From contig JAZDGE010000131.1 of NCBI GenBank assembly GCA_043807175.1, positions 1 to 33,191 on the forward strand: a stretch of DNA of 33,191 nucleotides, written 5' to 3'. Position 1 is the first letter of the stretch. Every line of letters starts with the position of its first letter. Source of the stretch: Acidobacteriota bacterium. Its GTDB lineage: Bacteria; Acidobacteriota; Thermoanaerobaculia; Thermoanaerobaculales; Thermoanaerobaculaceae. Below, piece by piece: positions 18,223 through 30,822 of this stretch. The translations under genes and the position numbers were made by a program. The notes under the pieces are model-generated. The model ran no database searches. It was not told the DNA's origin and worked only from the letters and a program-made list of their open reading frames with translations.

Positions 18223-18969
18223 TCACCTTTCGGGCCGCAAGCCGGGTTCGGTCGCTGGCGAGAGCAGCCAGGCGATCTCGCCGGCAGCCACTGGTCCAGG
18301 CATCGCGTACCCCTCGCCGAGCTCGTAGCCGATGAGGTTGCCGGCGGCGCGGTCACGACCCTCGATGGCGGCGAGAAAGTAACCGCTGGCGAGGTGGGTC
18401 GGCGCGCCACCGACAACGGCAAACTGCGAGGCGTGGGCCGCAAGCGCCGCGCGTTTCACGGGATAGCTGGCCGACACGTCGATCACGAGCGCCGGCTCGA
18501 AGAGCTGGCGCGGGCCAGGGTAGGCGAGCACGAGATGCGCGCGCTCGGGGCCACCCAGCTCGCCCTGCCAGCGCGCCACACCGGCGAGGAAGTGTGCGCG
18601 TGAGACGAGCTCGGCGGCGGCGCGGTGGTCGGGGTGCGGGTCGGCGTTGTGAGGGGCCAGCAGGGCGCGGGGCGCAGCCTCGCGCAGCGTCTTGACCAAT
18701 GCCGCAAGCTGCTCCTCGTTGGCCGAGGAGAGATGGCCATCCGCAAGACCGAGGCAACTGCGCCTGGCCACACCCAGCGCCCGCGCGGCAAGCTCGGCTT
18801 CCTGCCGCCGGGTCGAGGCGTCGCCCCGGGTGCCGAGCTCACCGTTTGTGAGGTCGAGGATGCCGACGATCTTTCCCGCAGCAGCGAGGCGGGCCAGGGT
18901 GGCGCCGCAGCCGAGCTCGACGTCGTCGGGGTGGGCGCCGATGGCGAGCACCTCGCAGCGCCCTACCAC
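18223..18969 (-). CDS. bshB: N-acetyl-alpha-D-glucosaminyl L-malate deacetylase (LmbE/PIG-L family, bacillithiol step 2)
   Basis: VLAIGAHPDDVELGCGATLARL...ILDLTNGELGTRG...HPDH motifs. The GTG start overlaps the bshC stop by 7 nt. Confidence 0.88.
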   Translation of the reverse strand: MVGRCEVLAIGAHPDDVELGCGATLARLAAAGKIVGILDLTNGELGTRGDASTRRQEAELAARALGVARRSCLGLADGHLSSANEEQLAALVKTLREAAPRALLAPHNADPHPDHRAAAELVSRAHFLAGVARWQGELGGPERAHLVLAYPGPRQLFEPALVIDVSASYPVKRAALAAHASQFAVVGGAPTHLASGYFLAAIEGRDRAAGNLIGYELGEGYAMPGPVAAGEIAWLLSPATEPGLRPER

Positions 18970-20510
18970 TCGCCCTCCTCCCAGAACAGGAGATGCATAC
19001 CGGGGTCGGTGGGGTCGAGCCGGGCCACGAGTTGCTGTGGCCAGGAGACGCCGAGTCGCAGCAGGGGCGCCAGAAGCGAGAGGTAGCGCTCCTGGGGGTG
19101 GCCGGCGGGGCGTAAGAAGGCGCGCAGGCGCCGCCAGCGCTTCCCCTCGACATCGGCGGCTCGGGTGGCGGCGGCGGTCGCCCGTCCCTCCAGCCAGACC
19201 AGCGCGCCTTCAAGCCTGGCTCCGGTCGCTTCGAGGTCGCCCTGCAGCGCAGGCAGCTCGGCGCCTGTGACCAGGCGCAGCGCCTCGCCTTCGCGCTCGA
19301 CGGTGCGGCGCAGGCGGGCAAGAGCGCGGCGCACGCCCGCGCCAGCGAGTAGATGACGGGGCGGGGCCGCATGCAGGAGGTGGTGGGGCTCGATGCCGAG
19401 CTGTCGAATCAGCCGCCGCTCCGCATTGGTAACGAGAGTGACATGCGGCCGCAGGCGCCACTCGGGGCGAGCCACCCCGGCCAGCTCCCACAGCCGCATG
19501 GCCTCGATGTGGTAGGCGAGCTCGGCGCCGCCGAGGATCGCGGTCGCGGCACCGAGGGCGGCGTCCTGCACGAGCGGTCGCAGCCAGACATTGGGGAGGA
19601 AGCGCTCGGGGTGGGCGGCGTGCTCGTCGCGAATCGCGGTCGGGCAGTCGTCTCCGGCGGCGGCGAGTCGGCGGCGTCGATGGCTCTCGCGGCGGAAGAC
19701 CGGCAGGATGTATTCATTGAGCTTGAGCGGAAGCGGCCAGCCGCGGGCGGCAAGCTCGCGCTCGCCGGCGCGCAGCGCCTCCCAGGCCGCCGGCAGGCGT
19801 CCGAGAAGCACATCAACGGCGGGCGCCGCCGCCTGCGCGAGGGCGGGCGCGAGCGCATCCACGAGGACAACGCCGGCGCCCGCGAGCAGGCGGCCCAGGA
19901 AGCTGCCGGTCGCCTCGCCGAGGCTGGCGCCAGGGCGATAGCAGTGGGCCGCGAGCGCGACGGCCTCCTGGGCGTAGGCCGCGGGCAGACGCTCGGCGAG
20001 GGTGGCAAGCAGCGTCGCGCAAGCCGGACCGAGCGTCGCCGGTCCCGCCAGCGAGACGCCCCGCACCCAGTCCGCCTCGCGCGCCGCGAGGATCTCATCG
20101 CCCACGACCACACGCGCCGTGCCCATCTCGGGGAGGTCGTCATCGGCGGTGGCCAGCCACAAAAAACCTACCGCCTCGACGCCGGCGGCCCGCAGGCGCT
20201 TAACCTCGGCGGCCACCGCGCAGGCCTTGACGAGCGTCAGGAGGGGGCCACCGAGCAAACCGGGCTGCTGGCCGGTGACGATCGCGACGGCACCGCCAAG
20301 CCAGCTTTCGATGACCCGGTCGACGGGATTTCCCCAGCCACGGTTGCACTCGGCGAGCACCTCGGCAAGGGCCGGCGAACGCGCGCCTGAAAACGAGGAC
20401 GCCGCCGGCAAGTCGAGCTCGCCTCGCGCATAAGCGAGGGCGGCCGGATGGAGGGCGGTCCACTCGGCCAGGGGCGCTTTCATGTGAGCCGGTGCAGGGC
20501 TGGTCCCCAT
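18963..20510 (-). CDS. bshC: Bacillithiol biosynthesis cysteine-adding enzyme
   Basis: About 515 aa with IVTGQQPGLLGGPLLTLVK and FLWLATADDDLPE, matching the BshC/YllA GGQQxGLxxGPLYxxxK and FWxAxEDHDxDE blocks. Operonic with bshB and bshA. ATG 20483 is an alternative start. Confidence 0.82.
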   Translation of the reverse strand: MGTSPAPAHMKAPLAEWTALHPAALAYARGELDLPAASSFSGARSPALAEVLAECNRGWGNPVDRVIESWLGGAVAIVTGQQPGLLGGPLLTLVKACAVAAEVKRLRAAGVEAVGFLWLATADDDLPEMGTARVVVGDEILAAREADWVRGVSLAGPATLGPACATLLATLAERLPAAYAQEAVALAAHCYRPGASLGEATGSFLGRLLAGAGVVLVDALAPALAQAAAPAVDVLLGRLPAAWEALRAGERELAARGWPLPLKLNEYILPVFRRESHRRRRLAAAGDDCPTAIRDEHAAHPERFLPNVWLRPLVQDAALGAATAILGGAELAYHIEAMRLWELAGVARPEWRLRPHVTLVTNAERRLIRQLGIEPHHLLHAAPPRHLLAGAGVRRALARLRRTVEREGEALRLVTGAELPALQGDLEATGARLEGALVWLEGRATAAATRAADVEGKRWRRLRAFLRPAGHPQERYLSLLAPLLRLGVSWPQQLVARLDPTDPGMHLLFWEEGEW

Positions 20511-23060: not shown

Positions 23061-24215
23061 TCAGCCAGGCGGTCGGGGGCCGCCGCACCTGGGACAGGCG
23101 GCGGGGTGGCAGGCGCGGCAGTACGGCTTGCCGCAGCCGGGGCAGTCGCCGTGGGCGGGTGGGCTGACGAGGTGCAGGGCGTCGTCGCACACGACGCGCT
23201 GGCGCTCGGCGGTGAAGGTGTGCTCGCAGGGCAGGGGCTCGAGCCGCTTGGCCCACGGGTTCCAGTCGAGGACGAGACGGCGCTCGCCCTTGCGGCGCCG
23301 GATGAGAAACGAGAAGCGCTGCACCGGCATCAGGAGCTCGAGGGTCTGGAGCCACTGCACCTCGATGTTCATGGCGTACTTCTGGCGCAGGTCTGCGACC
23401 TTGAGGTGGTACTCCCGGGCGATCGCCTCGAGGCGTCCGGCGACGAGGTCGGGATCGAGGCCGCCGCCCGCTGGCCGCTCCTTGGTGCGCCCAGCGGCGT
23501 GTCGCGCGTAGCACTCCTGGCGGAGCTCGGAGTAGTAAGTGAGGAGGCGCGCGAGGTCTCGGTTTTGGCGCCGCCGCATGCCGGCCAGAAACGGTGCGAG
23601 CAGCTCGTCCAGGCGCCCCGGAAGGGCGCGTGCCACCACCCCCGCGAGCCGCGGCTCGTCCCACGGCGGCGGCAGCTCGGCCCGCTCGGGCGGCGCGGCG
23701 AGGTGCATCACCTTGTCGCTCGCCGCCGCCTCCAGCAACGCCTCGCGCAGGCCATCGATGGTGCTGCCGGTGGCGAGGTTGAGGCCGAGCTGGAGCAGGC
23801 CCTCGTGCTTGTCGTCGGAGACCGCCGTGTAGCGGAAGGTGATGATGACGTAGCGCGTCCACGCCGGTGCGACGCCGGTGAGCCGGTAGGTGGCGTTGGC
23901 GAGCACCAGGGTGTGCGCGGCCACTCGCTCGGGGTCGCCCGGCGCCGGGCAGTCCATGAGGAGGGTCTGGAGATCGTGGCGACCGCGGCCGCCGAGCAGC
24001 TCGTCGAGGCGCTGCAGCCAGTCGCTGTCGAGGGTCACACGCTGGCTCGCGCCGGCGCGTGCCGGGCCGAACGAGAGCCGTGCCCACTCGTCGAGGTGCA
24101 GGCACCGCTGCACGTGCGGCGGGCTGACGACATCGAGGATCTCCGGCGAGGAGCGGTCGACAATGGCGCCCTCCCTCTGCAGCAGCTCAGTGAGAAGCTC
24201 GGCGAGCAGGCTCAT
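23061..24215 (-). CDS. Uncharacterised 384-aa protein with C-terminal triple-CxxC zinc-ribbon; partner of the SNF2 ATPase
   Basis: Within ORF 23061..24776, ATG 24215 lies 4 nt after the helicase stop. Codons are GC3-rich and composition is balanced (W, Y, F, K, N, I, M present), unlike the R/P/A-rich or V/G/E/H-rich competing frames. It ends ...CEH..x13..CDD..x15..CPGCGKPYCRACHPAACPRCGG. No enzymatic motif recognised. Confidence 0.75.
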   Translation of the reverse strand: MSLLAELLTELLQREGAIVDRSSPEILDVVSPPHVQRCLHLDEWARLSFGPARAGASQRVTLDSDWLQRLDELLGGRGRHDLQTLLMDCPAPGDPERVAAHTLVLANATYRLTGVAPAWTRYVIITFRYTAVSDDKHEGLLQLGLNLATGSTIDGLREALLEAAASDKVMHLAAPPERAELPPPWDEPRLAGVVARALPGRLDELLAPFLAGMRRRQNRDLARLLTYYSELRQECYARHAAGRTKERPAGGGLDPDLVAGRLEAIAREYHLKVADLRQKYAMNIEVQWLQTLELLMPVQRFSFLIRRRKGERRLVLDWNPWAKRLEPLPCEHTFTAERQRVVCDDALHLVSPPAHGDCPGCGKPYCRACHPAACPRCGGPRPPG

Positions 24216-24219
24216 GCCG

Positions 24220-26565
24220 CTACCCCACCTCGAGGTCGTCGCCGAAGAGCTCGCCGTCCAGCGCCTTGACGGCCTCGTAGTCGTGCTTCGCCGCCGCCAG
24301 GCGGTCACCAAGGGCGGCGAACGCCTGCGGGCGCTCCGCCTGAGTGCTGCCCACCCAGGCGGCGTAGACCAGCTCCGAGAAGTCCTGGCTCTCGTCGAGC
24401 TCGCCGAGGATGACGTCGATCTCGCCGACGACCAGCTCGAACATGTGGATCTTCTCCTCGAGGATGGTGAGGAGGTGCTCCTCGAGAGTGTTGCGGACGG
24501 CGAGGTTGAAGACGAACACCTCCCGTTGCTGGCCGATGCGGTGGATGCGGCCGATGCGCTGCTCGATCGCCATCGGGTTCCACGGCAGGTCGAAGTTGAT
24601 GAGGGTGTTGCAGAACTGGAGGTTGCGGCCCTCACCGCCGGACTGGCTGCACAGCAGCACCGGCGCCGAGTCGCGGAAGCGCGCCACCGCCGCGTCCTTG
24701 TCCGGCCCCGACAGGCTGCCGTCGAAGCGCGCCAGGCAAATGCCCTCGCGCGCAAGCCGCTCCTCGAGGCTTTCAAGGGTGGCGCGGTGGTGCGCGAAGA
24801 CCATCTTCTTCTCCTCCGGGTTGCGCCGGAGCAGGCCGAGCAGCGCCTCCTCCTTCACGCTCGTGGAGAGCTCGCGGTAGCGCGCGTGGAGGTCGTGCCA
24901 GCGCCGGTCGCCCCCGCCGCCGGTCGTGAAGCTGGCGATCGCCGCCCTCGCCGCAGCCGGCGCGGAGCCGGCGGCCGCCAGCAGATGGCGCAGCACCAGG
25001 CGGCGGTTGGCCTGAAGGACGCGGTGCTCCGCCTGCACCAGGACCGACAGCTCCTCGTAGCATGCGCTCTCGTCCTCGCTCGGCGCGAGCTTGCTCGTGA
25101 GGGCATGGCGGGGCGGCAGGCGCACGTCGACGAGCGAGCGGGTGTTGCGGATCATCACGTCGCGCATGAGGGTGCGCAGGCGCTCCCGGTTGGCCGGCTG
25201 CCGGGGCTTGCCGGGCCTCATGTACTGCGCTCGGAACTCCCTCTCCGTCTTGAAGATGCCAGGCTTGAGGAGGGTCAGCAGGTTGTACAGCTCGACGAGG
25301 CTGTTCTGCACCGGGGTGGCGGAGAGCAGGAGCAGGAAGCGGCGCTGCAGCCCGTCGACGAGCTTCCAGTTGGCGGTGGAGCGGTTCTTCAGGTGGTGCG
25401 CCTCGTCGACGACGACGAGGTCCCAGCTCTGCGCTCCGACGATGGCGGCGTGCTCCTCCCGCCGCGCCGCCGCGATCGAGGCGATGATCCGCGGCTGCCG
25501 CCAGAACGCCTTGGGGTCGCTGCGCAGCAACGCGTCCTCGGTGGTGGCGAGCTCGAGGAAGAACTTGCTCTCCATCTCCTCCCGCCACTGGCCGACGAGC
25601 GAGGCGGGGGTGAGGATCAGGACCTTCTCGACCATGCCGCGCAGCAGGTACTCCTTGAGGACCATCCCCGCCTCGATCGTCTTGCCCAGCCCCACCTCGT
25701 CGGCGAGCAGCACTCTGCCGTGGTACTGCCGCAGCACCTTGCGCACCGTCTCGACCTGGTACCAGTAGGTGTCCACCCCGAGCAGGTGGGGCAGGCACAT
25801 GAGCTCGTCGTAGTCGAGCGCGAGGCCGAGGCGCGCGAGCTGCGAGCGGAGGCGAAACCAGTGGGCGGTGTCGCCGCCGCCCCTGCGCGCGGCAGGGATC
25901 CAGCCGGCTGGCGCTGGAAGCGCCAGGCGGACGGGGATCTCGGCGTTGAAGCGGGGCAGCCCGGGTGGCGCTTCCGAGCGCGCCGGTACGGCTTTGGCCG
26001 GCTCGGCAGGCGCGGCTCGCGAGGACACAGGCGCAGGGCTACTCGTGGTGCGGGCCTGGAGTGGCGCTCTTGCAGCGGCCGCCTTCGGGGGCGGCGGCGC
26101 CGTGAGGCGGGCGCTCTCGGCGTGGATGCGTCCGATCCACGTGCCCACCAGCTTCCGGACACGCGGGATGCGAGGCAGCCAGAAGGCGGCCTCACTCACC
26201 CGGTCGAGACCATGGGCGGCCAGCAGGTTGGCGGCTAGCGACCAGCGCCGCTGCTGGGCCTCGGCGAGCGCCTGGAGCACGAGCTCCCCCGGGCGTGGCA
26301 CCCAGCGCTTCGCCAGCCGCTTGAGGTAGCGCAAGCAGCGTTCGGGGTGCTCCACGACCAACGCTGCAAGCGCCGCGGCGAAGAGGATGGTGGGGTGGGA
26401 CGGGAACTCGGCGAGTGCCTGCTCGGCCTCGTCCAGCACCTGCTCGCTGCCGCTTTCCAGGAGATCGTAGAGGTGCTGCCACCTGAATTCCGGCCCCGAA
26501 GGCGGGTCCGATTCCGGGATCTCCATGGGCTCGAGGTCGAATGGGCTGCGAGGTGGTGGCTTCAT
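24220..26565 (-). CDS. SNF2-family (SF2) DNA-dependent ATPase/helicase with a novel ~265-aa N-terminal region
   Basis: Motifs LLADEVGLGKT (I), VVVDEAHHLKN (II), LLLSATPVQNS (III), GGEGRNLQ (V), QRIGRIHRIGQ (VI). The ORF opens at GTG 26712, but codons 1-49 have more A/T in third positions than the codons after ATG 26565. GGAGA lies 3 nt before ATG 26565 (MKPPPRS), the preferred start. Confidence 0.9.
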   Translation of the reverse strand: MKPPPRSPFDLEPMEIPESDPPSGPEFRWQHLYDLLESGSEQVLDEAEQALAEFPSHPTILFAAALAALVVEHPERCLRYLKRLAKRWVPRPGELVLQALAEAQQRRWSLAANLLAAHGLDRVSEAAFWLPRIPRVRKLVGTWIGRIHAESARLTAPPPPKAAAARAPLQARTTSSPAPVSSRAAPAEPAKAVPARSEAPPGLPRFNAEIPVRLALPAPAGWIPAARRGGGDTAHWFRLRSQLARLGLALDYDELMCLPHLLGVDTYWYQVETVRKVLRQYHGRVLLADEVGLGKTIEAGMVLKEYLLRGMVEKVLILTPASLVGQWREEMESKFFLELATTEDALLRSDPKAFWRQPRIIASIAAARREEHAAIVGAQSWDLVVVDEAHHLKNRSTANWKLVDGLQRRFLLLLSATPVQNSLVELYNLLTLLKPGIFKTEREFRAQYMRPGKPRQPANRERLRTLMRDVMIRNTRSLVDVRLPPRHALTSKLAPSEDESACYEELSVLVQAEHRVLQANRRLVLRHLLAAAGSAPAAARAAIASFTTGGGGDRRWHDLHARYRELSTSVKEEALLGLLRRNPEEKKMVFAHHRATLESLEERLAREGICLARFDGSLSGPDKDAAVARFRDSAPVLLCSQSGGEGRNLQFCNTLINFDLPWNPMAIEQRIGRIHRIGQQREVFVFNLAVRNTLEEHLLTILEEKIHMFELVVGEIDVILGELDESQDFSELVYAAWVGSTQAERPQAFAALGDRLAAAKHDYEAVKALDGELFGDDLEVG

Positions 26566-26731
26566 CCGTCTCCGGGTCCGGCCAAGCCTACCCGTGCGCG
26601 AGCGGGCGTACAAGTGCCGCGGCGTTGGGGACGGGCAGGGGCGTGGGTCGCCGCTTGCCAGCGCCCGAGGTGGATCTGCCATTTTGGAGGCTGCCGAGGG
26701 TGCGAGGCCCACCTAACATGACACACCTGCG

Positions 26732-26905: not shown

Positions 26906-27093
26906 GGTGCGGGCGAGCGAGACCGCGCCGGTGCGGACTGCCAGGTGGGAGTGGTGGGCGTGCCCCCTCCGGGCCGGCGGCGCCTTGAGCTGCCGCGTAT
27001 GCCTCGGCCGAGCGTGTTTTGGGCTACCATCGAGGTGGCGACGCGGACGAACCGACGGATGTCCCGACAGGCGGGACGGGGGGCACAGGGGGA

Positions 27094-30000
27094 ATGGTGC
27101 GGATGGCGCCGACGAGGGCGGAGAGATGGCCCGCAAACGGGGCCGGGCGGGGTTTCTTCTGCGGCGCCTGGGGCATCCTCGCCCTTGTCGCAGGTGCCGC
27201 CCACGCCCTCGATCCCGACAAGGCGCTCACCCAGTACATCCACGAGAGGTGGGAAGCCGGGCAGGGTCTGCCCCAGAACTCGGTCCAGGCGCTGCTCCAG
27301 GCCCGTGACGGCTACCTCTGGGTTGCCACGCAAGAGGGATTGGCGCGCTTCGACGGCGTGCGGTTCGAGGTCTTCGACACCAGGAACTCGCCGGCGCTCA
27401 GCAACAACTTCATCCGCGCGTTGTTCGAAGACCGCCAAGGGGAGCTGTGGATCGGCACCAACGGCGGCGGGCTTGTCCACCTCAGCGAGCGGGGGATGAC
27501 CGCCGTAACGGTCGCGGACGGGCTGCCCAGCAACCGCGTCCTTGCCGTGTGCGAAGCGGGTAAAGGGGCGCTGTGGGTCGGCACGGACGCCGGCTTGGCC
27601 CGGCTGGAAAACGGGGTGGTCGTCCGCGGCGCGGCCGTCGACCTGCCCACCGACCTCGTGCGTGCCCTCCTGTGTACGGAAGATGGCGCACTGTGGGTGG
27701 GCACCGATGCCGGCCTGGTCCGGCTCGCCGGTGGCGGGCTCATCAGGTACACGACCGCGACCGGGCTGCCCAACAACCACGTCCGCGCCATGCTGCTCTC
27801 CCACGGCGAGCTATGGGTGGGGACCGACGGAGGCCTGGTGCGCTTTGCGGGGTTCGCCTCGCACGGCAGCGCACCGCAGACGTGGGTGCCACGGCGGCGC
27901 GTCACCGCGCTGTACCAGGACCGCCACGGCAGTCTCTGGATCGGCACCAACGCCGGGCTCTTCCGACTCCGTGGCGGCGCCCTCTCGGCCTTGACGAGCT
28001 CCGATGGGCTGCCCGATGACAACATCCTATCGCTCTTGGCGGATCGCGAGGGCAGCCTGTGGGTCGGCACCGGCAGCGGCGGGCTCAACCGCCTGCGCGA
28101 CGGCAAGGTCACGGTCTTCGCGGCGAGGGAAGGCTTGGGGAACGACAAGGTAAGGACGATCTACGAGGACGCGCAAGGGGTGGTCTGGGTCGGCACCGAC
28201 GGGGGCCTTTCCCGCATGGAGGGGGGCAGGATAACTACGCTGTCCACGCAGGAAGGCCTGCCCAGCAAGAAGGTCACCTCCGTGTACGCCGACGGAAAGG
28301 GGACCCTGTGGGTCGGGACTTACGGGGCTGGGCTGGGACGAGTGAGCAACGGCGTTGTTCGCACCATCTCCAGCAGGGACGGGCTGTCGCACGACGTGAT
28401 CACGGTCATCCAGGGCGACCGCGCGGGCGACCTCTGGGTGGGCACCGGCAGCGGGCTCAACCGTCTCCGGGACGGGCGAATCACCCCCTTTGCCGGCAGT
28501 GACCGCCTCGCCGACGAGGCGGTGATGTTCATCCATGAGGATCGAGGCGGCGCCCTGTGGATCGGCACCTACGGCGGCGGTTTGAACCGGCTGCAGGACG
28601 GGCAGCTCGCCAGCTTCACCAAGGAGGACGGCCTGTCGAGCAACATGGTCATCGCTGCCCACGAGGACGCCGAGGGGGTGCTGTGGTTCGGCACGCTGGG
28701 GGGCGGGCTGAACCGTTACCAGGGTGGTGTCTTCACCTCCTGCACCACGAAGCAGGGTCTCTTCGACGACAACGTCTTCGAGATCCTCGAGGACGACCTC
28801 GGGAACTTCTGGATCGGCTGTCACCGCGGGATCTACCGCGTCGCCAAGGGAGAGCTCAGCGCACTCGCTCAGAGCAAGGCGCGCTCGGTGTCTTGCGCCG
28901 TGTACACCGTCGCCGAGGGCATGAGGAGCAACGAGTGTGCGGGCGGTTCGCAACCGGCCGGGTGGAAGACTCGGGACGGCCGGCTGTGGTTTGCGACGAT
29001 TCAGGGCGCGGTGGTCATCGATCCGGCGAGGCCGGGGAAGAACCCGTTCCCTCCTCCCGTGCACATCGAGAAGATCACGGTCAAGGGGAGTCCGATCAAG
29101 GTCGCCACCGATCTCCGCCTGCCGCCGGGCAGCCGCAATCTCGAGATCCACTACACCGCCCTGAGCTTCGTGGACGCAAGCAAGGTGCTCTTCAAGTACC
29201 GGCTGGAGGGGTTGGACAGGGACTGGGTTGTGGCAGGCACGCGCCGGGTGGCGTACTACACGAACCTGCATCCCGGGGAGTACCGGTTCAGGGTCACCGC
29301 GTGCAACAACGACGCGGTGTGGAACGAGGCAGGCGCCGCCGTGGAGTTCACCCTCGAGCCTTACTTTTACCAGACCCGCTGGTTCTACGCGCTGGTTGTC
29401 GTGGCCGCGGCGGCCGGCACCTGGGGTGGCCTAGAGGTGCGCGTACGCAAGATGAAGCGGCGCGAGGCGGAGCTGCTCGCGCTCATCGAGGAGCGCGATC
29501 GCGCCGTCGCCAGGCTCGATCACCTCGCCCATCACGATCTCCTCACCGGCCTGCCCAACCGACTTTCGTTTTACGACGGCCTGACTCGGGCCCTGGTCGA
29601 GGAGCGCGAGAGCGGCCGGCGCTTCGCGCTGCTCCTCATCAACCTCGATCGTTTCAACGAGATCAATGACATGATGGGACACGAAGTCGGGGACATGGTG
29701 CTGCGCGCCGTGGCGAGACGACTGGGTGCGTTGCTCGGCGAAGGGGACATCGTGGCGCGCATGGGCAGCGACGAGTTCACGGTGCTGTGGCGAGGCCTGG
29801 ACCGCGACGGCGACCCGGGGCGGTTTGCGTCGCGCATCCTCGACGAGCTGTCGGCGCCGCTCCACCTCGCCGGTCAGGAGTTCCGGCTCCTCGCCAGCAT
29901 CGGTGTGGCGATTTGCCCTGCCGACGGCGACGATGTGGAGACCCTGATGAGGAACGCCGACTTCGCGATGAACAGGGCCAAGAACGAGGGTGGCCATACC

Positions 30001-30822
30001 TGGCAGTTCATCACCGCGGAGGTGAGTGCCACGGTTTCCGAGCGGATCGGCCTCAAGCGCAGCTTGACCGAGGCGTTGACCCGCGAGGAGTTTACCCTGC
30101 ACTACCAGCCCCAGCTCCAGCTCGCCACCGGGCGGGTGGTGGCGATTGAGGCGCTGGTTCGCTGGCAACGGCCCGGCCTCGGTGAGCTGCTCCCCGGGAA
30201 GTTCATCGAGCTCGCAGAGGAGACGGCGTTCATCGAGCCGCTCGGGGAATGGGTGCTGAAGACTGCGTGTGCCCAGGGCCAGGCATGGCGCACGGCGGGG
30301 TTCGGCTCGTGCGCGGTCGCCGTGAACCTCTCCGCCCGGCAGTTCCACCAGCGGGAGCTGAGCGGCGTGATAGCCCGCGCTCTGGCAGTCACCGGCTTCG
30401 ACGCCAGGCTGCTGGTGCTGGAGATCACCGAGAGCACGGCGATGCGGGACATGGAGGCCACGGCGGTCATCCTCGGGGAGCTCAACGAACTGGGCGTGAG
30501 CATTGCGGTCGATGACTTCGGTCGGGGCTACTCCTCGCTCGCCTACTTGAAACGCTTTCCGATCCACGCGCTGAAGATCGACCAGAGCTTCATCCGCGAC
30601 GTTGTGCGCAGCCCGGAGGACGCGGCCATCGTCCAGGCCATCGTGTCGATGGCGCACGCCCTCAACCTGCGGGTCGTCGCTGAGGGCGTGGAGACGACCG
30701 AGCAGCTCGCCTTCCTCCGCCGGGCCGGGTGCGACGAGGTCCAGGGCTTCCTGATCGGGCGGCCCGGCCCGCCGTCAGAGCTCGAGCCATTCCTGCGGGG
30801 ACCGCGGGACGTTGACGCGTGA
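27094..30822 (+). CDS. Periplasmic-sensor c-di-GMP protein: two-component-regulator propeller repeats + Y_Y_Y domain + TM + degenerate GGDEF (GSDEF) + EAL
   Basis: Signal/anchor GFFCGAWGILALVAGAAHA. More than 12 repeats of the G.LW(V/I)GT..GL.R type. FKYRLEGLDRDW...YYTNLHPGEYRFRVTA (Y_Y_Y). TM WFYALVVVAAAAGTW. GGDEF domain with RMGSDEF. EAL domain with EALVRW, NLS, EITES, DDFGRGYSS, KIDQSF, EGVET, QGF all present. Start ATG 27094 follows AGGGGGA. Confidence 0.9.
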   Translation: MVRMAPTRAERWPANGAGRGFFCGAWGILALVAGAAHALDPDKALTQYIHERWEAGQGLPQNSVQALLQARDGYLWVATQEGLARFDGVRFEVFDTRNSPALSNNFIRALFEDRQGELWIGTNGGGLVHLSERGMTAVTVADGLPSNRVLAVCEAGKGALWVGTDAGLARLENGVVVRGAAVDLPTDLVRALLCTEDGALWVGTDAGLVRLAGGGLIRYTTATGLPNNHVRAMLLSHGELWVGTDGGLVRFAGFASHGSAPQTWVPRRRVTALYQDRHGSLWIGTNAGLFRLRGGALSALTSSDGLPDDNILSLLADREGSLWVGTGSGGLNRLRDGKVTVFAAREGLGNDKVRTIYEDAQGVVWVGTDGGLSRMEGGRITTLSTQEGLPSKKVTSVYADGKGTLWVGTYGAGLGRVSNGVVRTISSRDGLSHDVITVIQGDRAGDLWVGTGSGLNRLRDGRITPFAGSDRLADEAVMFIHEDRGGALWIGTYGGGLNRLQDGQLASFTKEDGLSSNMVIAAHEDAEGVLWFGTLGGGLNRYQGGVFTSCTTKQGLFDDNVFEILEDDLGNFWIGCHRGIYRVAKGELSALAQSKARSVSCAVYTVAEGMRSNECAGGSQPAGWKTRDGRLWFATIQGAVVIDPARPGKNPFPPPVHIEKITVKGSPIKVATDLRLPPGSRNLEIHYTALSFVDASKVLFKYRLEGLDRDWVVAGTRRVAYYTNLHPGEYRFRVTACNNDAVWNEAGAAVEFTLEPYFYQTRWFYALVVVAAAAGTWGGLEVRVRKMKRREAELLALIEERDRAVARLDHLAHHDLLTGLPNRLSFYDGLTRALVEERESGRRFALLLINLDRFNEINDMMGHEVGDMVLRAVARRLGALLGEGDIVARMGSDEFTVLWRGLDRDGDPGRFASRILDELSAPLHLAGQEFRLLASIGVAICPADGDDVETLMRNADFAMNRAKNEGGHTWQFITAEVSATVSERIGLKRSLTEALTREEFTLHYQPQLQLATGRVVAIEALVRWQRPGLGELLPGKFIELAEETAFIEPLGEWVLKTACAQGQAWRTAGFGSCAVAVNLSARQFHQRELSGVIARALAVTGFDARLLVLEITESTAMRDMEATAVILGELNELGVSIAVDDFGRGYSSLAYLKRFPIHALKIDQSFIRDVVRSPEDAAIVQAIVSMAHALNLRVVAEGVETTEQLAFLRRAGCDEVQGFLIGRPGPPSELEPFLRGPRDVDA

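Follow-up and report, generated by a model that had tools for sequence, protein, structure and literature searches.

A stretch of 33,191 nucleotides (nt) from an Acidobacteriota bacterium (contig JAZDGE010000131.1 of assembly GCA_043807175.1), referred to here in its whole length as the window, carries on its minus strand a gene for a 781-amino-acid (aa) Swi2/Snf2 ATPase (the SNF2 protein), followed immediately by a gene for a 384-aa protein (the partner). An initial annotation, made from the sequence alone, had reported the coordinates of this pair, the SNF2 motifs, a 4-nt junction, the 384-aa open reading frame (ORF) and an eight-cysteine tail, and all of them were recovered when the sequence was read again (Table 1). 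The complete set of SNF2 motifs was found (DEVGLGKT, DEAHH, SATPVQNS, GGEGRNLQ, and QRIGRIHRIGQ), and Pfam recognized the domains SNF2-rel_dom (4e-38) and Helicase_C (3e-21). The SNF2 ORF could also start at the first GTG, at position 26712 (24220-26712, 49 additional codons); the 781-aa version, which begins with ATG and corresponds to record P0271, is consistent with the lengths of the orthologues, 750 to 800 aa. The Shine-Dalgarno (SD)-like sequence that precedes the partner lies within the 3' end of the SNF2 gene, and the short junction would be compatible with coupled, equimolar synthesis of both proteins. In the orthologous loci the junction measured mostly from -11 to +60 nt.

The two genes constitute a real, widely conserved and co-inherited operon. 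The locus sample comprised four inspected contigs and 80 loci of species-representative genomes, and 79 of 85 loci had enough upstream DNA to be tested. In all 79 an SNF2 orthologue was found directly upstream of the partner and on the same strand, with an identity to the SNF2 protein of the window that was mostly between 52 and 66%; the pair is thus not a chance arrangement. Clustering of all the ORFs of the 85 loci yielded only two conserved families, the SNF2 gene and the partner gene, and when a third conserved gene was sought among these loci, only shadow ORFs overlapping the pair were obtained. The pairwise distances of both proteins over 50 loci were correlated with an r of 0.94, a value that was reached by none of 999 permutations, and the mean column identity across phyla was 56 to 58% in the partner and SNF2 alignments. 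The pair therefore behaves as the self-contained module that had been proposed, with orthologues co-localized in related genomes.

A word-indexed search returned at least 977 homologues of the partner at about 50% identity, from many phyla and nearly all named "hypothetical," while an exhaustive profile search of a representative library, with a threshold of E ≤ 1e-3, rendered 1361 clusters at 50% identity. Among the 150 best clusters lengths ranged from 110 to 445 aa, full-length members having about 350 to 445 aa. Carriers were found among Bipolaricaulota, Acidobacteriota, Acetobacteraceae (including the cultured Rhodopila globiformis DSM 161), Competibacteraceae, Magnetococcales, Clostridia/Heliomicrobium, Armatimonadota, Planctomycetota, Myxococcota, and Dormibacteraeota. 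Plasmid copies were observed in Nostoc (L087:4074-6843), Oscillatoria (L089:5101-7870), and Rhodovastum (L088:5389-8104), where they adjoin parA/parB, PIN and RelE toxin-antitoxin, relaxase, and integrase genes. The SNF2 proteins of these three plasmids are short (522 to 569 aa) and lack the helical N-terminal domain described below; the partners of the cyanobacterial plasmids have 346 aa and about 25% identity and lack the three CxxC pairs. A plasmid of Halocatena salina (L096:3926-8454) carries an SNF2 gene (35% identity), then a gene for a 676-aa protein whose first ∼400 residues are homologous to the partner (hhalign probability 98.4%, E of 5e-15), and then an annotated restriction endonuclease gene. 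This copy extends the pair into the Archaea, with a different C-terminal extension. Plasmid statistics can be misled by several PLSDB "plasmid" records that are whole chromosomes (Bacillus sp. N5-665, NZ_CP093325.1, of 5.5 Mb; E. coli, Proteus, and Acinetobacter), although these records served here to supply YqhG and RapA sequences. No phage relatives of the partner were found by tblastn against phage genomes or by Foldseek against viral structures.

The SNF2 protein was 38 to 39% identical to two Bacillales YqhH proteins (E of 1e-104 to 1e-113; 482 aa), versus 32.5% to E. coli RapA (E of 1e-46). Its best PDB relative by sequence was RapA (6e-46), and its AlphaFold model (mean pLDDT, the predicted local distance difference test, of 76, with high values in the folded parts) rendered RapA in all of the top four Foldseek matches in the PDB (E of 3e-20, ∼575 columns, 25 to 26% identity). 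Against the NCBIfam RapA equivalog NF003426 it scored 237.8 bits, in two stretches, the cut-off being 576; one orthologue is labelled "RNA polymerase-associated protein RapA" in the source database, where names are inconsistent (P0086, P0111, P0337). The N-terminal helical domain was predicted with a pLDDT of about 93 to 98 over most of its length, and Pfam TPR_16 was precomputed for 2 of 120 orthologues. The linker that follows falls in a region where the orthologue consensus is not conserved. Tudor domains were absent from the protein both in the Pfam scan and in the model, where the N-domain consists of helices only and the linker is disordered. The protein ends about 100 residues past Helicase_C, and its C-terminal helices coincide in position with the start of Pfam RapA_C in RapA (605 to ∼700). 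RapA_C itself had no Pfam match in the SNF2 protein or the partner, its structural equivalent being encoded by the next gene.

For its part, the partner had no match in Pfam, NCBIfam, or PADLOC, nor did a profile search of PDB sequences return any, so that the earlier statement that it bears no nameable motif was a fair one. Neither YqhG nor RapA_C was matched when Pfam was searched with the plasmid copies and with ten divergent members of the family. The AlphaFold2 (AF2) model of the partner, built on 74 homologues, reached a pLDDT of 92.3 and a predicted template-modelling score of 0.79. Its first domain shows the order H-E-E-H-E-E-H-E-H (H, helix; E, strand), followed by a long β-hairpin sheet broken by two very long helices (residues 187 to 244 and 255 to 279); strands 283 to 319 bear the RRRKGER motif, and the Cys-rich tail comes last. 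Two basic patches, RRxxRD and RRRKGER, are conserved. The tail reads CPGC-GKPY-CRAC-HPAA-CPRC, with C330 and C343 before it, giving the spacing C-x12-C-x14-CxxC-x4-CxxC-x4-CxxC. Of 170 family members, about 90% carried this zinc module. It was absent from YqhG and from the cyanobacterial plasmid copies, and it gave only weak Pfam matches, of the HypA, B-box, and RING types. Homologues of the partner are labelled "RING finger protein" or "hydrogenase maturation nickel metallochaperone HypA" in the source database. The possibility that domain 1 is an active nuclease was considered and tentatively rejected, as no conserved (D/E)xK was seen by eye in the alignment.

Table 1. Positions of the genes, the junction, and the protein domains in the window
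Feature	Position	Strand	Description	Basis
SNF2 (Swi2/Snf2) ATPase gene	24220..26565	-	YqhH/RapA-like, 781 aa	ORF, motifs, Pfam, Foldseek
N-terminal all-helical repeat domain	26101..26493	-	Residues 25-155; eight helices, TPR (tetratricopeptide repeat)-like; kept in orthologues	AF2/DSSP
Pro/Ala-rich linker	25870..26085	-	Residues 161-232; predicted disordered	pLDDT mostly <50, almost no secondary structure
Swi2/Snf2 ATPase core	24436..25869	-	Residues ∼233-710; motifs I-VI	Motifs, Pfam, invariant columns, AF2
SNF2 C-terminal helices	24244..24423	-	Residues 715-774; proposed partner-docking element	AF2 helices 715-721, 729-738, 745-774
Gene junction	24213..24231	-	SD-like GAGGTGGGG (24231-24223), SNF2 stop TAG (24222-24220), 4-nt spacer CGGC (24219-24216), partner ATG (24215-24213)	Direct sequence reading
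Partner gene	23061..24215	-	384 aa; YqhG-like/RapA-C-terminal-module-like with Zn-binding tail; stop codon at 23061-23063
Partner domain 1	23901..24215	-	Residues 1-105; α+β, equivalent to RapA Spacer/degenerate restriction endonuclease-like domain	AF2, hhalign, PMC12839542
Partner second region	23256..23900	-	Conserved SDEKR loop and RRRKGER basic hairpin; like RapA/BrxHII C-terminal α+β domain
Eight-Cys zinc module	23076..23234	-	C330, C343, C358/C361, C366/C369, C374/C377, plus D344 and H348	Invariant in 74 homologues

A profile of 170 family members, aligned by hhalign to the YqhG proteins of Bacillus sp. and Brevibacillus, revealed a remote but significant homology (probability of 95%, E of 3.5e-8, 230 columns), with residues 3 to 291 of the partner on residues 5 to 252 of the 264 of YqhG. 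Against the Brevibacillus protein alone the E value was 1.8e-4. Since the profile matches nearly all of YqhG, the partner is a YqhG homologue with about 90 further residues, which comprise the basic hairpin and the zinc module. The genuine yqhH-yqhG pairs used here came from two PLSDB records, the 5.5-Mb chromosome and a 733-kb record with chromosomal-type genes. Bacillus sp. N5-665 encodes a 560-aa YqhH followed by a 264-aa YqhG, while in Brevibacillus laterosporus an SNF2 gene is followed by an annotated "YqhG family protein," beside gcvT-gcvPA-gcvPB. The Pfam family of YqhG, PF11079, gave weak matches in 22 of the 74 family members (best E of 0.003; scores seen of 12 to 15 bits versus a gathering threshold of 25), colinear in the three members that were looked at, and no match in the partner of the window at E ≤ 1. 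With the partner homologous to YqhG, its fold like that of the RapA C terminus, and the SNF2 protein like YqhH, the pair is a YqhH/YqhG-type arrangement with added domains. It was not filed as YqhG in the sense of Pfam, or as RapA, because the PF11079 and RapA equivalog thresholds were not reached and the RapA N-terminal domain is absent.

The designation of the partner as unassignable, and of the pair as an undescribed two-gene system, must therefore be revised: the pair represents the yqhH-yqhG arrangement, which the initial annotation had mentioned only for comparison, with extra domains. The partner thus matches a family, but not a characterized one with a known role, which was the kind of match named there as speaking against novelty. 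The yqhH-yqhG operon, whose second gene defines PF11079, is named but functionally almost uncharacterized. In the B. subtilis literature YqhH is called HepA/RapA (PMC7385302). B. subtilis yqhH is also listed with sporulation genes transcribed by sigma-F, a role that cannot hold in the many carrier lineages that do not sporulate. A limited literature search found no paper that equates YqhG-like proteins with the RapA C-terminal module, and searches for PF11079, RapA_C, or SNF2 with a zinc ribbon returned nothing relevant.

The fold of the partner pointed to RapA. When its model was compared by Foldseek with 350,542 PDB chains, E values of 0.001 or lower were obtained only for E. coli RapA (6bog_A, 7.6e-6 over 310 columns, and 8t0l_F); the next match had an E of 0.37. 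A comparative study (2026) described the region past the ATPase core that is common to RapA, BrxHII, and related helicases as a degenerate, inactive restriction endonuclease (REase)-like domain followed by an α+β domain, the latter having, for RapA/BrxHII, no homologue found by the authors outside these helicases (PMC12839542). The model of the partner shows the same order of elements, and its fold was accordingly assigned to that module. As both the SNF2 model and the partner model match RapA best, the two proteins together cover RapA except for its N-terminal domain.

Sequence comparison gave a faint signal in the same sense. The 170-sequence profile, compared by hhalign with an alignment of RapA C-terminal regions from five species, placed partner residues 3 to 75 on RapA residues 714 to 792 (P = 0.016), with a score of 25.0 versus a maximum of 21.7 for 30 block-shuffled controls and 13.5 for a reversed control. 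Under relaxed settings, residues 1 to 297 of the partner were colinear with RapA 712 to 968, up to the C terminus of RapA, and against full-length RapA the top match, nonsignificant, fell at 716 to 744. A profile of 74 sequences compared by hhalign and hmmsearch with a single RapA gave only a spurious DEAH-like match, and two YqhG sequences gave no match to a five-sequence RapA_C alignment, which was too shallow. The signal, weak as it is, appears to fall where it would be expected.

In the window the pair is surrounded by housekeeping genes, namely, bshC, dapF, and tsaD, together with genes for a PIG-L deacetylase, an M48 peptidase, a small membrane protein, a signal peptidase, and a Reg_prop-GGDEF-EAL sensor. 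Flanks vary from locus to locus and are mostly of the housekeeping type, as in the window and the four fully inspected loci, in agreement with the earlier description of the surrounding genes as unrelated, and they are not conserved. The sensor gene (27019-30822, plus strand), which is divergent from the SNF2 gene, does not keep this position in related loci; its product, of 1267 aa, combines Y_Y_Y, GGDEF, and EAL domains with seven Reg_prop repeats. The bshC gene and the PIG-L family deacetylase gene, which resembles bshB, lie at 18223-20510 (minus strand), and an organism with both genes probably makes bacillithiol. The genome has a guanine-plus-cytosine (GC) content of about 69%, and very long ORFs in other frames overlap the pair on both strands between 22945 and 26238 (for example 23890-26238, plus strand, 782 aa); these are typical high-GC shadow ORFs.

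Taken together, the pair is probably a RapA-type Swi2/Snf2 machine that is split in two in the manner of YqhH-YqhG and that would remodel or evict a DNA-bound protein, with RNA polymerase (RNAP) as the leading candidate. The parts of this proposal differ in strength. The data demonstrate homology, fold, colinearity with RapA, and strict co-inheritance of both genes, whereas formation of a complex, translocation on DNA, and the target would follow from analogy. The split RapA/YqhH-YqhG architecture is very likely, while the assignment of RNAP as the target, which is drawn by analogy with RapA, is tentative.

Swi2/Snf2 proteins generally translocate on double-stranded DNA. The 781-aa protein would be the ATP-driven motor and, as other members of the group, would presumably track along duplex DNA. 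Its C-terminal helices may serve as the docking site of the partner, which in turn would provide in trans the two α+β domains that are fused C-terminally in RapA, BrxHII, and related helicases: a degenerate REase-like Spacer, and a β-sheet domain with a coiled-coil insert. In RapA, the N-terminal domain pulls the β' zinc-binding domain and opens the clamp. The Spacer then inserts as a wedge in the opened cleft, touching the β' zinc-binding domain as well, and the flap tip is the anchoring site of domain 1A. In the pair from the window, the helical N-domain on its flexible linker of ∼70 residues would stand in for the RNAP-binding Tudor domains of RapA, and this domain, the basic hairpin, and the eight-Cys module, which would hold two zinc ions, are the candidates for target recognition. 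It is probably these lineage-specific additions that set the target. The complex would then use ATP to remodel or evict a DNA-bound protein, possibly RNAP that is stalled or remains on DNA after termination, as for RapA.

Several observations weigh against this proposal. The similarity in sequence between the partner and RapA is not significant (P = 0.016 at best, and nothing with a single RapA). The Foldseek output came without aligned ranges, and N-terminally truncated RapA structures in which the C-terminal domains are present (8so8 and 8spg) were matched by the SNF2 model and are missing among the partner matches listed. Global superposition of the partner and RapA was poor (TM-score of 0.32, root mean square deviation of 11.8 Å), which is expected for a multidomain match but is still weak. 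The Tudor N-terminal domain, essential for the action of RapA on RNAP, is absent here, and the RNAP target is thus not directly transferable from RapA. The patchy occurrence of the family across phyla and its presence on plasmids fit poorly with a core housekeeping transcription factor. Finally, the physical association of the SNF2 protein with the partner is one that we infer.

In another reading, the large, unannotated branch with the zinc finger and the helical domain (at least 1361 clusters at 50% identity, from Acidobacteriota to plasmids of haloarchaea) would be a retargeted RapA-type motor that acts on a target other than RNAP, YqhG-like proteins being the RapA C-terminal module in trans. 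This is rather unlikely in our estimate. Under such a reading the pair might, as one candidate, be a compact system of two genes that senses or removes complexes of proteins with foreign or plasmid DNA, and the split form could then be ancestral to the fused RapA, BrxHII, and DrmD.

A minimal two-gene system for defence, or against mobile elements, is also unlikely. The motor and an inactive-REase "sensor" would in that case recognize foreign DNA or a protein of a phage, and would act by themselves or together with effectors encoded elsewhere. In PADLOC, the SNF2 protein indeed scored best with DrmD (238 bits) and with BrxHI/BrxHII (220 bits). BREX type 3 and related systems have the same C-terminal module in their core, where it has been proposed as a nucleotide sensor (PMC12839542), and the patchy distribution at ∼50% identity suggests horizontal transfer. 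The toxin-antitoxin, partition, and relaxase genes beside the plasmid copies, and the restriction endonuclease gene beside the haloarchaeal one, point in the same direction. However, the partner lacks a PADLOC match, and the scores of the SNF2 protein with the NCBIfam models of DrmD, DpdE, and ZorD were all far under their cut-offs. No methylase, PglZ, BrxC, DrmA/B/C, nuclease, or third conserved gene was found in the 85 loci, the flanks are of the housekeeping type in the window and the four fully inspected loci, and no phage homologues were detected by sequence or fold. The mean column identity across phyla would also be unusually high for genes engaged in an arms race. The gene context, with its housekeeping flanks and no defence partner genes, thus lends no support to a defence role, as had already been noted.

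We assign a similarly low probability to a factor for DNA damage or replication stress, whose motor would remodel stalled forks or damaged DNA-protein complexes while the zinc module reads DNA structure. In B. thuringiensis, fewer cells survived UV when yqhH was deleted, and ATPase and unwinding activities were reported for the purified protein (PMC10054049); in B. subtilis, YqhH (HepA) was grouped with replication-transcription conflict factors (PMC7385302). The basic patches and the zinc module of the partner are typical of nucleic acid binders. Nevertheless, the Bacillus data derive from a 38%-identical relative without the helical N-domain and the zinc module, deletion of hepA/yqhH left the lethality of PcrA depletion unaltered (PMC7385302), and no repair genes were linked to the pair in any locus. 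In addition, this explanation overlaps that based on RNAP and is not exclusive of it.

That the resemblance to the RapA C terminus is a coincidence of a coiled coil and β-hairpins, the partner being an unrelated zinc-finger adaptor beside an SNF2 gene, is very improbable: the low TM-score, the lack of a significant sequence match to RapA, and the missing RapA chains would agree with it, but RapA was the sole significant match among all chains, the separate weak alignment fell at the expected place, above the shuffled controls and colinear to both C termini, the domain order agrees with the published description (PMC12839542), the SNF2 half independently matches RapA best, and the homology to YqhG is significant, so that several independent lines concur.

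A split RapA-type machine, if this is what the pair represents, would identify in structural terms both Pfam YqhG and a large family of "hypothetical" proteins, namely, as the C-terminal regulatory or substrate-contacting module of RapA-type motors in the form of a separate subunit, and would imply that this module can be supplied in trans. The YqhH/YqhG pair becomes testable with the tools developed for RapA (RNAP binding, clamp opening, and R-loop phenotypes), and the inconsistent database names of family members ("RING finger protein," "HypA," "RapA") can be corrected. What seemed an undescribed system is reduced to a recognizable architecture, and a large unannotated family gains a testable mechanism. 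The yqhH-yqhG operon and the architecture of RapA were known already; new here are the two added domains and the wide distribution outside the Firmicutes. RapA, as a motor of housekeeping, and BrxHII and DrmD, as motors of defence, would thereby be linked with a third form, which is split and whose targeting domains can be exchanged.

Among known systems, the pairs of SWIM and SNF2 proteins are similar in that a gene for a small zinc-binding protein lies beside a bacterial SNF2 ATPase gene. This assignment was rejected, as the partner has no CxCxnCxH motif and no SWIM match in Pfam, and its fold is like that of the RapA C terminus. In five acidobacterial loci (L017:5315-5899, L023:5333-5971, L022, L033, and L038), a gene for a protein of ∼200 aa lies between the SNF2 gene and the partner. 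This protein has a SWIM-like CSCYIG(x)GGCHHC motif (CSCYIGKGGGCHHC/CSCYIGGGCHHC), its copies are 51 to 55% identical, and it had no Pfam match at E ≤ 0.01; its insertion in these loci indicates that both types of partner can coexist. In one of them (L017:4943-5311), a gene for a CcbP calcium-binding protein (PF11535, 3e-40) was found between the SNF2 gene and the SWIM-like gene.

BrxHII, DrmD, and the SNF2 protein of the window all fall in the RapA-like branch of the Swi2/Snf2 proteins, and the core of BrxHII consists of an SNF2 domain, an inactive REase domain, and a C-terminal α+β domain, in this order (PMC12839542). Unlike the pair, BrxHII and DrmD are single polypeptides, the former with an N-terminal Tudor domain, and they form part of multigene systems whose other members (a methylase, PglZ and BrxC, or DrmA/B/C) are not encoded near the pair. 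BREX type 3, defined by the N-terminal Tudor domain of BrxHII and linked BrxC, PglXI methylase, PglZ, BrxA, and BrxF (PMC12839542), was rejected since the Tudor domain is absent and BrxC, PglXI, PglZ, BrxA, and BrxF were not found in the window or in related loci. DISARM was rejected as well: the two DrmD models scored 242 and 238 bits versus cut-offs of 950 and 610, and drmA/B/C and a methylase are not nearby. The absence of DISARM, BREX, and SWIM signatures from the window is in accordance with the initial annotation.

The yqhH-yqhG operon of the Bacillales, the closest known system, shares with the pair the gene order and the strand, a short SNF2 gene being followed immediately by the partner. 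It differs in that the SNF2 protein of the window has about 230 extra N-terminal residues (helical-repeat domain and disordered linker), and its partner has about 90 extra C-terminal ones (basic hairpin and eight-Cys zinc module) and stays under the PF11079 threshold. RapA, the closest characterized relative, is the best structural match of both proteins of the window; the partner corresponds to its Spacer and C-terminal domain, and the pair is colinear with RapA residues ∼110 to 968. RapA is, however, one polypeptide instead of two, and its tandem Tudor domains (Tudor_1_RapA and Tudor_RapA, found by Pfam in E. coli RapA), which grip the β' zinc-binding domain, are lacking in the pair, whereas the pair adds the helical N-domain and the zinc module.

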